Below are positions 2,968-14,601 of a stretch of 37,549 nucleotides of DNA, in pieces. The stretch is from positions 1 to 37,549 of the forward strand of contig JAIORY010000231.1 in the NCBI GenBank assembly GCA_021107915.1, given 5' to 3'. Both the position numbers and the translations under genes were made by a program. Under the pieces are notes generated by a model, which saw only the letters and a program-made list of their open reading frames with translations, was not told where the DNA came from and searched no databases. This stretch comes from Bacteroidales bacterium (GTDB taxonomy: Bacteria; Bacteroidota; Bacteroidia; Bacteroidales; JAIORY01). Numbering within the stretch: the first letter of the stretch is position 1; every line of letters starts with the position of its first letter.

Positions 2968-3228
2968 CTAAAGAAAAACTATCAAAAGACAAACAACGAT
3001 AGAAAAGAATGCAACACCTTCGATAAGAGCGGCTGCTACAATCATGTTCGAACGGATATCACCGGCTGCTTCAGGCTGACGAGCGATTGATTCAACAGCT
3101 GCACGTCCTATCTGACCAATTCCGATACCGGCTCCAATTGCCGCAATACCGGCTCCAATACCGGCTGCCATTTTTGCTAATGGGGCCAAATCGGTTGCTA
3201 CTTGTAATAATATTGTTAATAAATTCAT
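2968..3228 (-). CDS. atpE: F-type ATP synthase subunit c (H+-type signature)
   Basis: GxGxG helix, RQPE loop, LIEGVA with essential Glu; lacks the Q...ES/T Na+ motif. Confidence 0.98.
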
Positions 3229-3270
3229 AATAATGTATTTAGTTGATTAATTAATTGTTTAATTTTAAAT

Positions 3271-3383
3271 ATGTCTGTCCATAAAGTCAATCATATTGAT
3301 AAAATTTTAGATTTATGATTTTAAATTTTAAATCTGAATTCTAAAATCTTAAATTGTTAGAGCGTGATTTTATAGACCGGCAC
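3271..3383. mobile_element. 113-bp MITE-like element with imperfect terminal inverted repeats and 5-bp TAAAT flanking duplication
   Basis: Ends atgtctgtccataaagtca / tgattttatagaccggcac (14/19 complementary); TAAAT at 3266-3270 and 3384-3388; inverted partial copy at 13372-13452. Confidence 0.7.
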
Positions 3384-3410
3384 TAAATAGTGTTGTTTCA
3401 CTTTATATAC

Positions 3411-3881
3411 TTACAATCCCGCACTAATTAAAAACGTTGCTGCAAAGGCAATAATTGCATATAATTCAGGGAATACGGCAAGTACCATTGTCTTTCCGAA
3501 AATATCGTGCCCTGAACCTATACCTGCAATTCCTGATGCACAAACACTGCCTTGTTTTATCCCTGACATAAGTCCGACAAATCCTAAAGCAACTCCCGCT
3601 GCAAAAACTGCAACTCCCTGATATATCGATAATGTCAAAACTCCATCAACAACCATCTCTGAAAGCTTTGTGTTGATAATAAAAAATCCTGCAAAACCGT
3701 AAAGTCCCTGGGTTCCTGGCAATGCGCTTAATAACATATAGCTCCCGAAAGCCTCATCATTTTTCTTTAAAGCTCCTATCGTGGCATTTCCGCCCGATGA
3801 AACACCTATTGCACTTCCTATGCCGGCTAATGTAATCATTAATGCCAATCCTACATAGGCAAGTATTACTGCTGTTGTCAT
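3411..3881 (-). CDS. ntpK: V/A-type ATPase rotor subunit K (Na+-binding signature)
   Basis: Four-TM duplicated c-fold; [18 protein letters not shown] match the NtpK Na+ site. Confidence 0.95.
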
Positions 3882-4097
3882 AATAATTCTCCTTTTATAA
3901 TTTATTAATAATTTATTTTTATTTTATTTATAACTTTTCAGTACCTAAAATAATTAGTTAACTTTAAGTACTCTTATATAACTAAACAGGTTATTTCTTT
4001 CTGAATTTTAAATTCATCATTTTAAATTTTAAATTTCTTTCAACAATGCAAAATGTAGAATTTTAAATGCAAAATGTAAATCATTCTATTTACTCTT

Positions 4098-12266: not shown

Positions 12267-12315
12267 GTAAGTTTTTGCATTGTTTCTTTTATAATTGTTT
12301 CTTTTTTTTGATTTG

Positions 12316-13365
12316 TTAACCAACATTTATTACAGCCCAAACAATGTAAGCAACATAAAGCAGTATTAGAAACGCACCCATTTTTTTGCCTACAACCCAT
12401 TTGTTAATAATAAATAACCCAAACAAAACTGCCACGGAAGCCAAAAGAAACTGTACTGACATATTTAAATCATCAATATGCAGGCTGATATTCCCTCCGG
12501 TAATTAATATAATTAATAAAAAGGGCAACCCAAGTCCTATTAAAATATCAAATATATTCGATCCTATTACATTGCTGATAGCCATGCCGCCACGTCCTTG
12601 CTTAGAAACTACTACTGAAGAAATAAAATCAGGCACAGAAGTGCCGACTGCCAATACTGTAACTGCAATAACAGCCTCGGAAATATTTAAAATATGAGCT
12701 ATGCCTATAGCACTTTCTACAAGAACCCAACTTAATGCAGCTATAATTAAAATCGAAATAAAAAAGATAGCATAATATTTTTCAGGCTTTGGAAAAATTT
12801 TATCTAAAACAAAGTCGAACGGAGAAGTAATTTTTTTGACGAATTCCGATTTATCAATATTTTTTTTGACTTCTTGTTTTTCTTCATTCGGATCAACATA
12901 ATTGAACATTCTTCGCCAAAACACAACAACAATAATATATATAAGGTAAATACCAATAAATAACGCTGCATCTGTCCATTCTACTTTACCGTCTTTAAAT
13001 AAAAATATTAATAATAATATTGCAATTGCGTAAAAAACAAGGTCGCGGATAACTGCCTGCCAGGCAATCAGAGCTTTTCTTACAACTGCTATTGCACCTG
13101 TAATTGCCAAAATATTGAATAATGCTGAACCAACAATGTTGCCTATTCCAATAGCTTCATGGTTTCCTGGGCGCAAGACTGCAAAAAGGGCAATAAATAA
13201 TTCAGGTGCGCTGGAGCCAGCTGCCATTAAAGTTGCCCCAGCTGCATCAGATGACATTTTTAGTTTCGCTGCAATTTTATCCAGCGAGTCCACAAAATAT
13301 CTTTCAATAACTTTTGCTAAAAGATAAAACGACAGAAGCAAAACAATGATCAACAATATAAGCAT
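12316..13365 (-). CDS. Calcium/sodium antiporter (CaCA, YrbG-like)
   Basis: Alpha repeats GATLMAAGSSAPE and LAVGTSVPD; GNIVGS / NVIGSN; about 10 TM helices. Confidence 0.93.
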   Translation of the reverse strand: MLILLIIVLLLSFYLLAKVIERYFVDSLDKIAAKLKMSSDAAGATLMAAGSSAPELFIALFAVLRPGNHEAIGIGNIVGSALFNILAITGAIAVVRKALIAWQAVIRDLVFYAIAILLLIFLFKDGKVEWTDAALFIGIYLIYIIVVVFWRRMFNYVDPNEEKQEVKKNIDKSEFVKKITSPFDFVLDKIFPKPEKYYAIFFISILIIAALSWVLVESAIGIAHILNISEAVIAVTVLAVGTSVPDFISSVVVSKQGRGGMAISNVIGSNIFDILIGLGLPFLLIILITGGNISLHIDDLNMSVQFLLASVAVLFGLFIINKWVVGKKMGAFLILLYVAYIVWAVINVG

Positions 13366-13371
13366 AATTAT

Positions 13372-13452
13372 AATTTAAGATTTAAGAATTCAGATTTAAA
13401 ATTTAAAATCATAAATCTAAAATTTTAACTTTCAGACTTTATAGACCGACTC
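13372..13452. mobile_element. Partial inverted copy of the 3271-3383 MITE-like element
   Basis: 13372-13426 is the reverse complement of 3301-3355 (54/55); end gactttatagaccgactc matches the TIR. Confidence 0.75.
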
Positions 13453-13455
13453 TAA

Positions 13456-14601
13456 TCAATGATGTTCTTCTGTTGCCATTCCGATATAAAGTGCTGATAA
13501 TAATGTAAAAACATAAGCCTGAATAAGAGCAACAAGCAATTCGAGAAAACCCATGAAAATAGCAAAAGCCACAGATAATACCGAAACACCATATCCTAAT
13601 ACCGGATTTATATTTCCGAAAATAAAAATCAGGCTAATAAAACCCAAAACAATTATATGTCCGGCTGTAATATTAGCAAAAAGTCGCACCATTAATACAA
13701 AAGGTTTTGTAACTAATCCCATAATTTCAACGATAGGCATTAATGGAATAGGGATTTTTAACCACCATGGAACCCCCGGAGTATTAACAATATGTTTCCA
13801 GTAATTTCTGTTTCCGCTAACTGCTGTAATAATAAAAGTAAAAACAGCTAAAACCCCCGTTACGGCTATATTACCTGTAATATTTGCTCCTCCGGGAAAA
13901 AATGGAACTAATCCAAGTAAGTTATTTAGAAAGATGAAAAAAAACAGGGTGAGTAAATACGGCATAAATTTTTCGTATTTTTTTTCACCGATTGCCGGTT
14001 TTACAACATCATCCCTGATAAAAAGAATTATTGGTTCAAGTAATGATTGCAGTCCTTTTGGTGCTTTACCTTTTCTTTTGGTATATGTTCGGGCAATCGA
14101 AATAAACATCCAGCAAATGAGTACCATGCTGATTAATATCGCAAAAACATTTTTAGTGATTGATAGATCCAAAGGCAGGTTAGGATCAATAACTCCGGCT
14201 TCGTCAATACGAACAATTTTACCTTTATATTCTCCATCAGACATTAATTTGTATCCTTTGTATGAATCGTGTCCGTGATGAAATTTACTTGACCAAAAAG
14301 TTACTATCGTTCCATTATCAATTAAAATAATAGGTAAAGGTATTGAAACATGAGTATGTCCATAAGTTAAAATATGCCATTCATGCGAATCAACTATGTG
14401 ACTAATGATTTCTTTCCCAGCTTTAAATTCTGATTTTTCTACTTCTTCTTCCCAGCTTTCAGCATGTTCTTTGTTTTCGTTTACCGGAGAATTATTTGTA
14501 TGTTGTGCATTGATAAATTGGATCTGAAAAACACACAAAAGAAAAGCTAAAAATAAAATCCTGAAAACATTTATTTTATTATGTTTGATCGTACTTTTCA
14601 T
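13456..14601 (-). CDS. atpB: F-type ATP synthase subunit a
   Basis: RLFANITAGH essential Arg; LELLVALIQAYVFTLL; long Bacteroidetes-type N-terminus. Confidence 0.97.
   Translation of the reverse strand: MKSTIKHNKINVFRILFLAFLLCVFQIQFINAQHTNNSPVNENKEHAESWEEEVEKSEFKAGKEIISHIVDSHEWHILTYGHTHVSIPLPIILIDNGTIVTFWSSKFHHGHDSYKGYKLMSDGEYKGKIVRIDEAGVIDPNLPLDLSITKNVFAILISMVLICWMFISIARTYTKRKGKAPKGLQSLLEPIILFIRDDVVKPAIGEKKYEKFMPYLLTLFFFIFLNNLLGLVPFFPGGANITGNIAVTGVLAVFTFIITAVSGNRNYWKHIVNTPGVPWWLKIPIPLMPIVEIMGLVTKPFVLMVRLFANITAGHIIVLGFISLIFIFGNINPVLGYGVSVLSVAFAIFMGFLELLVALIQAYVFTLLSALYIGMATEEHH

Follow-up and report, generated by a model that had tools for sequence, protein, structure and literature searches.

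Why should the genes of one rotary ATPase lie inside the operon of another, and how did they come to be there? The question is raised by a 37,549-nt window, the whole stretch of DNA analysed here and the reference for all positions given, which is contig JAIORY010000231.1 of a metagenome-assembled genome (MAG) of a Bacteroidales bacterium (GCA_021107915.1). Between atpB and atpE of its F-type ATP synthase operon stand a gene for a CaCA-family exchanger and the genes of a V/A-type ATPase. We read this as a lineage-restricted Na+ cassette of about 10.2 kb in the atpB-atpE spacer of an H+-type F1Fo operon, recently exchanged, that would encode a pump and an exchanger and be coupled to the F-type genes by transcriptional read-through; we put the probability of this reading as a whole at roughly 0.7. 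Its structural and evolutionary parts are well supported. The cassette, as we would delimit it, consists of the CaCA gene, a seven-gene V operon (E, DUF2764, A, B, D, I, K) and one passenger gene, PDDEXK_3.

The coexistence of an H+ F-type and a Na+ V-type enzyme in Bacteroidota is already known, as is the transfer of ATPase operons. What is unusual here is that a second machine and a predicted Na+/Ca2+ exchanger sit within the operon of the first, in a block that appears far younger than its surroundings. In the literature searched we found no description of a V operon, with or without an exchanger, inside an F operon; supplementary operon tables (ProAD database paper, 2026 preprint) could hold cases.

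The interrupted operon and its junctions

Genes were called from a listing of open reading frames (ORFs) and from Pfam and NCBIfam profile scans. On the minus strand, to which the features below belong unless stated otherwise, the order is atpB, CaCA, V-type E, DUF2764/C, A, B, PDDEXK_3, D, I, K, atpE, atpF, atpH and atpA. The initial annotation had described atpB and atpE as lying about 10 kb apart with co-directional V genes and a CaCA gene between them, and subunit K as immediately upstream of subunit c; both descriptions hold and the coordinates are correct, the distance from atpB to atpE being 10,227 bp and the gap from K to atpE 182 nt. atpB itself (13456-14601) encodes an F-type a subunit of 381 aa with a long N-terminal extension (PF00119, 197.5 bits). 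Junction 1, from the atpB stop to the CaCA start (13366-13455), contains one copy of a dispersed repeat at 13372-13427. Junction 2, from the K stop to the atpE start (3229-3410), contains another as a hairpin with its core at 3300-3355, which matches the reverse complement of the first copy at 98%. The repeat is an AT-rich palindrome resembling repetitive extragenic palindromic or miniature inverted-repeat transposable elements (REP/MITE-like), with 132 blastn matches on 78 contigs of the MAG.

Both junctions occur in G000, the window genome; in G002, a congener; in G026; and in G042/G044, G026 and G042 representing another genus. The K-to-atpE junction is also present in G001 and in a single metagenome contig of 14.7 kb (L169) that runs from V-E through atpA, and the atpB-to-CaCA junction in G047. 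Thus at least one junction is found in six species-level genomes from two small genera, and both in four of them. Junction 1 of G002 has no repeat, its atpB stop lying 9 nt from the CaCA ATG, and junction 2 of G042 likewise lacks it, with a K-atpE spacer of 70 nt. Single contigs (L055, L057, L058, L152, L149, L169) physically tie diverged flanks to the cassette, and a second contig of the window's MAG also has the junctions. Because the junctions recur in independent assemblies, include repeat-free examples and lie on contigs with diverged flanks, misassembly, which the initial annotation had named as a possible refutation, is excluded, and the nesting is genuine. The notion that the repeat, present in both junction spacers of the window, stitched a V-operon contig into the atp operon during assembly or binning, for which the splitting of the MAG into 461 contigs and the breaks of short public-run contigs within the repeat might speak, is accordingly extremely improbable.

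The 56-bp inverted repeat was considered as a terminal repeat of the cassette and rejected, since it is a genome-wide element and is missing at the G002 and G042 junctions. A further copy of the REP/MITE-like element lies at 4004-4034; the element matches other genomes and families of the order, and contigs frequently terminate within it. The window corresponds to contig C3 of the MAG, and contig C14 is the reverse complement of C3 positions 1-23470, with 4 mismatches and with three more copies of a 79-bp tandem repeat that the window carries in 2.4 copies at 6495-6681 (no strand assigned). This redundancy may reflect strain variation or duplicate assembly. Apart from the duplicate contig C14, which repeats the gene layout of the window, the MAG has a single F-type a, a single F-type c and a single K.

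Contigs of the public runs X1-X4 are short and break in the repeat, and none crosses a whole junction; their stretches without cover, such as most of atpB in X1, carry no information. One X1 contig connects position 13456 (the atpB stop) with 3272, a point 44 nt ahead of atpE, through three intervening letters and at a depth of 57. This join has the appearance of an uninterrupted atpB-atpE site and may come from a related organism in the sample. In run X4, from another study, a 6.8-kb contig covers 8592-12224, from V-A to V-E, at 90-99% identity and then joins 12224 to 3153 on opposite strands; CaCA is uncovered in that run. This second join could mean that the module is inverted or sits elsewhere, or it could be an artefact of the contig.

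The remaining F-type genes are accounted for within the MAG. Downstream of atpE, profile scans identify atpF (b subunit, 2193-2687), atpH (delta, 1630-2187) and atpA (alpha, 23-1609), while atpD and atpC (beta and epsilon, 16933-18855) lie upstream of atpB, from which they are separated by a 108-aa ORF and two opposite-strand genes (SnoaL-like and TPR). An intact atpG (gamma) is found on C456, a 1-kb contig of the same MAG. With it the F1Fo subunit set is complete: a, c, b, delta, alpha, gamma, beta and epsilon.

Distribution and exchange of the cassette

The initial annotation had asked for the synteny of atpB and atpE in related genomes, and the arrangement proves to be lineage-restricted rather than common. 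A search with atpE matched 39 of 41 relatives. Among the 30 loci examined (ten further atpE matches lie outside this count), K precedes atpE in four (G000, G001, G002, G026) and atpB does so in 26, one of which (G011) holds a PDDEXK_3 gene in between. A DNA probe reaching from the 3' end of K across the spacer into atpE hit with both of its sides within a single contig in 5 of 401 genomes drawn from the order (G000, G001, G002, G026, G044) among the matches listed, beyond which there were 101 weaker matches; in G047 the atpE-side portion of the probe matched where a contig ends. All three genomes of the window's family are nested. Of the five genomes in the family of G026, two (G026 and G044) are nested, G047 shows junction 1, G046 possesses V genes with no junction assembled, and G045 (77% complete) gave no V-B match and carries a divergent transporter gene before atpE. 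In relatives, the place of the cassette is taken by an atpB-atpE spacer of about 45 nt.

A third lineage, G041, carries the same V module at another locus. Its F-type locus reads atpD-atpC-(TPR, SnoaL)-atpB-atpE-atpF-atpH-atpA, with an uninterrupted atpB-atpE spacer of 43 nt. The V operon, whose V-A is 94% identical to that of the window, follows kdtA, pepA, a cytidylate-kinase-like gene and a Usp gene; its downstream end lies beyond the contig. Homology to the window starts 42 nt before the CaCA stop codon, leaving a 42-nt CaCA stub upstream of the V operon, which indicates that the G041 module derives from a CaCA-linked form.

Synonymous divergence (dS) was calculated by the NG86 method for the window genome against relatives, and for atpB also in 60-codon windows. 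Between G000 and G002, F-type and core flank genes differ by 0.31-0.67, and CaCA and the V genes by 0.20-0.44. Against G026 and G042, lspA, atpD, atpE, atpF, atpH and atpA reach 1.1-3.4 or saturation (values above about 1.5 being near saturation, so that ratios are rough), and CaCA and the V genes remain at 0.20-0.61. The gene atpB is intermediate, at 0.83-0.92 overall, and resolves into segments: codons 1-190 exceed 1.1 or are saturated, codons 191-250 give 0.26-0.33, codons 251-310 about 1 and codons 311-370 about 0.5. The low-divergence tract therefore has an edge within atpB near codon 190. In Fisher tests on identical synonymous codons in atpB, p was 3e-5 for G026, 7e-4 for G042 and 0.28 for G041, in which no dS step is seen.

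The full pairwise matrix gives the same picture. Between the two genera, labelled g1 and g25, F genes differ by dS of 1.3-1.65, and within g25 by 0.08-0.18. For the V genes of all eight genomes, almost every pairwise value lies at 0.21-0.50, and a single pair reaches 0.70. Within g25 the V genes have diverged further (0.22-0.46) than the F genes, and G047 has its nearest V genes in G002 (0.21). Maximum-likelihood trees place the V module in a tight cluster that includes G041, and the F-gene tree puts G041 outside on a long branch. The phylogenetic comparison suggested by the initial annotation was thus made with F genes, and the two trees differ in the position of G041. Nonsynonymous divergence (dN) of G042 V genes was excluded, being inflated by poor partial alignment of subunit I. 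For G000 against G002, dN/dS is about 0.11 for F genes, about 0.10 for V genes and 0.15 for CaCA; on these values both enzymes are under purifying selection, and F, V and CaCA genes all appear to be in use.

The low dS of the cassette and of the 3' half of atpB, together with the V module at a different locus in a third lineage, argues for recent exchange. On these comparisons the cassette is a recently exchanged unit, younger than its flanks, a point that the initial annotation had missed. An alternative account has a single insertion in the common ancestor of the two genera, followed by vertical descent only, with selection on codon usage or low local mutation keeping dS down. The insertion site is indeed the same in both genera, the V-type A and B proteins are strongly conserved, and there is no break in GC content at the cassette borders. 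Nevertheless, the less conserved cassette genes (DUF2764, I, E and CaCA) also show dS of only 0.3-0.6 against G026 and G042, compared with 1.5-2.2 for the highly expressed atpA and atpD. The excess of V-gene over F-gene divergence within g25, the affinity of G047 V genes to those of G002, the V module with its CaCA stub elsewhere in G041, whose F genes are the most distant, and the location of the dS step inside atpB all speak against vertical descent as well, and we judge it very unlikely.

How, then, did the recently exchanged cassette move? No integrase, transposase or recombinase domain was found by Pfam scan in any cassette ORF, and the cassette does not have the makings of a self-mobile element, whether integrative element or transposon. 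This makes homologous recombination, with conserved atp genes as arms, the simplest route, and the inclusion of part of atpB in the low-divergence tract points to such recombination among fairly close relatives. The cassette probably moved by recombination in atp genes. Published work describes whole rotary-ATPase operons passing between lineages, in Thaumarchaeota (PMC6863869) and for the N-ATPase (PMC2881411). As in those cases a complete ATPase operon moves as a unit; the difference is that here the F-type operon of the host itself is where the unit arrives or is swapped. In the literature searched, no description was found of inter-lineage exchange of such a cassette with a breakpoint in atpB.

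The content of the cassette varies among its carriers. A 372-aa Usp-domain gene stands between V-B and V-D in G001, G026, G041, G042, G046 and G047 (L062 13176-14294; homologues in L063, L168, L163, L059, L057/L058 and L169) and is not present in G000 or G002. The PDDEXK_3 gene is absent from G002 and G001, persists as a remnant in G026, and is present in the otherwise matching contig L169, which is identical to G001 over the 378 nt compared.

Subunits and predicted ion coupling

The V genes of the window follow the order E, DUF2764, A, B, D, I, K of the Bacteroidales V operon, with PDDEXK_3 as an extra gene between B and D. The E-like subunit (203 aa, 11619-12230), at the first position of this conserved seven-gene operon, has as its best match NF002424 (E 2.8e-33, below the cut-off of that model). 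The DUF2764 protein (290 aa, 10572-11444) is a V-type C(d)-like (AC39) subunit, with 214 bits to PF10962 and 36.3 bits to PF01992 (cut-off 29). The catalytic subunit A (587 aa, 8604-10367) matches PF00006, PF16886 and PF02874, and subunit B (449 aa, 7194-8543) matches PF00006 and PF22919. Next come the variable passenger, PDDEXK_3/GxxExxY (127 aa, 6757-7140; PF13366, TIGR04256), and subunit D (204 aa, 5885-6499; PF01813). Subunit I, the stator and ion channel component (596 aa, 4098-5888), scores 70.9 bits to PF01496 (cut-off 30.7) and matches NF004429 with E 1.4e-95, below the cut-off of that model. Subunit K (156 aa, 3411-3881) is a duplicated c-type hairpin with two PF00137 stretches. The hallmarks of a V/A enzyme are therefore present: PF00006 with the V/A-specific insert PF16886 in A, a V_ATPase_I family protein as I, and a duplicated K.

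The initial annotation had held that K carries a full set of Na+ ligands and that atpE lacks a Na+ motif, and alignments to proteins of known structure bear out both statements. The Na+ ligands of Enterococcus hirae NtpK are L61, T64, Q65, Q110 and E139; in a phmmer alignment to 2bl2 all five are identical in the window's K, which thus has the complete Na+ site. The atpE product (86 aa, 2968-3228; PF00137, TIGR01260) was aligned to the Ilyobacter tartaricus c subunit (1yce), where the Na+ ligands are Q32, S66, T67 and Y70 around E65. At those four positions it has I, G, V and F, and the carboxylate E65 is kept. The c ring is consequently not of the Na+-coupled Ilyobacter type and is H+-type by motif. 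The CaCA protein (349 aa, 12316-13365), a predicted Na+/Ca2+ antiporter, has two Na_Ca_ex (PF01699) stretches and passes the cut-off of the calcium/sodium antiporter model TIGR00367 (208.3 bits against 179.65). Its nearest solved chains, NCLX, NCX_Mj and NCX1, are all Na+/Ca2+ exchangers, which agrees with the earlier assignment of the exchanger to a Na+-coupled type. The three ion assignments, Na+ for the K ring, H+ for the c ring and Na+/Ca2+ for the exchanger, are predictions at the level of motif and family.

From these predictions a division of labour can be proposed. The V enzyme would hydrolyse ATP and expel Na+, the CaCA exchanger would spend that Na+ gradient on the movement of Ca2+, and F1Fo would remain an H+ ATP synthase. 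The V/A enzyme might instead be a Na+-driven ATP synthase, giving the cell two synthases that run on two ion gradients. Bacterial V/A enzymes can make ATP, Thermus being the example named in PMC10197588, and in PMC9171764 an enzyme whose c subunit is V-type is reported to synthesise ATP. Against this, K is a duplicated hairpin in which four helices share one carboxylate site, an organisation also found in the E. hirae pump, and co-location with an exchanger that consumes Na+ fits a pump. One carboxylate per four helices yields a low ion-to-ATP ratio. We consider a second synthase rather unlikely and prefer the Na+ pump.

Two known systems come closest. In Bacteroides fragilis P207 a V-type operon coexists with a separate F-type operon (PMC10197588; compare Table 1 of Mulkidjanian et al. 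2008, PMC2359735). PMC10197588 makes the same Na+ motif argument for that species and calls the Bacteroides enzyme uncharacterised. The B. fragilis operon shares with the window its gene set and order, a duplicated K with the E. hirae ligands, and an H+-type F1Fo in the same cell. It differs in that its V and F loci are separate, whereas in the window the V operon is inside the F operon, with CaCA ahead of it and PDDEXK_3 as a passenger. The second system, the E. hirae ntp operon, has the five Na+ ligands of NtpK in common with the window's K. That operon also ends with a cation-transporter gene, ntpJ, and would in this respect be an earlier example of a Na+ V-ATPase accompanied by a transporter gene. 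The ntp operon has a different gene order and other subunits (the window lacks F, G and H), its transporter is Ktr-type rather than CaCA, and it is not embedded in an atp operon.

Transcription and linkage of the two operons

The linkage of V and F operons was surveyed in a V-A scan of species genomes, from which the best 80 loci, in Bacteroidales MAGs and isolates, were kept. The order E, DUF2764, A, B, D, I, K is found in 57 loci that reach K, named isolates included (Maribellus, Draconibacterium, Gabonibacter and Odoribacter). In five of 52 loci with at least 1 kb after K (L071, L075, L079, L086, L113), atpB follows K co-directionally by 265-457 nt, and in two of these, L079 and L113, atpD-atpC lies 5.8 kb upstream of V-E. 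Further cases come from metagenome contigs: L223 and L187, where K is followed by atpB, L215, where atpA is followed by V-E, and L172, where lspA is followed by V-E. The view that F- and V-type loci are normally separate thus stands for most loci and fails for these five and several metagenome contigs, in which V genes adjoin atpB or atpA. The eight contigs that join V to atpB or atpA resemble the window in being co-directional and directly adjacent; they differ in having an uninterrupted atpB-atpE pair, no CaCA gene, and V-A proteins only 73-78% identical to that of the window. Among the 66 genome loci that extend 1 kb or more beyond the V-E start on its upstream side, none has CaCA there, and the idea that CaCA accompanies V operons in general was rejected on that count. 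V-F operon linkage is recurrent in the order; interruption of atpB-atpE and the presence of CaCA are particular to the window's clade.

Upstream of V-E, 29 nt before its ATG, lies a TAnnTTTG box (12259-12266), a Bacteroidota -7-like motif and putative promoter element. The initial annotation had pointed to this motif, and it is kept in five genomes (G000, G001, G002, G026, G042). The last 44 or so nt before atpE resemble the ancestral atpB-atpE spacer of 45 nt and contain no promoter motif, for which reason atpEFHAG probably depends on transcription from upstream. No terminator-like hairpin on the coding strand was found in either junction spacer. The combined pattern TTTG...TAnnTTTG gave 5 matches against 4.6 expected, none of them in the region. 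We infer that atpB and CaCA would be co-transcribed, that the V genes would start from the conserved TAnnTTTG box, and that transcripts would read through from the V genes into atpEFHA(G).

The juxtaposition might instead be neutral, with the atpB-atpE spacer acting as a permissive landing spot and the two enzymes transcribed and regulated independently, so that no dual-ion superoperon exists. Unrelated passengers do occur in atp spacers of the order (G011, G007, G045), the V operon retains its own conserved promoter-like box, and in G041, as in most Bacteroidales, the V module works away from the atp genes. On the other hand, all cassette genes point the same way as the atp genes in each of the genomes seen. 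The co-directional placement of V operons beside atpB or atpA in at least eight further contigs suggests that linkage is favoured or at least repeatedly tolerated, and the spacer before atpE shows no promoter motif, with atpEFHAG probably reliant on upstream transcription. We regard neutrality as possible but doubtful, and lean towards the putative read-through arrangement.

Several observations weigh against our reading as a whole, in addition to the near-saturation of the higher dS values given above. All genomes used are fragmented MAGs. The low-divergence tract stops before atpE (dS 1.3-1.4), so no downstream homology arm is visible and recombination is the route we infer; at its other end, the tract in atpB is a mosaic, interrupted at codons 251-310. 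No CaCA gene was detected in G001 despite a completeness of 96%, so that the content of the cassette varies. The direction of the V enzyme, pump or synthase, is not readable from sequence. A scan for the sigma-70 promoter consensus gave 112 sites against 86.8 expected, no better than chance, and a terminator scan stayed at chance level with 12 sites against 10.7. The repeat hairpin in the K-atpE spacer folds as RNA with -28.6 kcal/mol (z -3.8) and could attenuate read-through; it is not conserved across genomes.

A bolder combination of these elements is offered tentatively, since we think it on balance unlikely to hold in full. It would have the cassette spread without a recombinase of its own by recombining in atpB and on the atpE side, the atp genes serving as portable homology arms, after which the F-type c, b, delta, alpha and gamma genes would be transcribed downstream of a Na+ pump and the two ATPases expressed as one unit. 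If the recombination route is true, a large bioenergetic module moves by means of landing arms in housekeeping genes and with no mobile-element machinery. If read-through is true, the locus offers a natural example of two rotary ATPases, each with its own coupling ion, whose expression is forcibly joined; it would be useful for studying the balance of proton and sodium cycles and be a way into the uncharacterised Bacteroidales V-type enzyme.

Some minor features of these loci may be recorded. Between the TAnnTTTG box and the V-E start, a leader of about 90 nt is present in G026, G042, G001 and G041 (L057 11680-11800; L152 759-880, minus strand; L059 9597-9720, minus strand; L062 8320-8441) and deleted in G000 and G002. 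It was considered as a structured element, for which a consensus fold of -2.7 kcal/mol gives no support, and neither the window nor three related loci had an Rfam hit at the gathering threshold. For atpD (17317-18855) the TTG start as listed probably lies too far upstream: a TAnnTTTG box at 18860-18853 overlaps it, and alignments of relatives start at residue 2-13. The 108-aa ORF after atpC (16334-16660) has no Pfam or NCBIfam match and is kept in G002, G026 and G042 at 48-76% identity. In L172 the V operon (V-A 83%) lies 2.2 kb downstream of o1122-o132-lspA, the genes that precede atpD in the window, and the V operon may accordingly have a history in the lspA-atpD neighbourhood. Other insertions in atp spacers include the PDDEXK_3 gene between atpB and atpE in G011 (L061 2786-3160), a 220-aa ORF, a small ORF and a 23S_rRNA_IVP gene between atpE and atpF in G007 (L060 7476-9009), and a divergent AI-2E transporter gene before atpE in G045 (L161 2060-3154).

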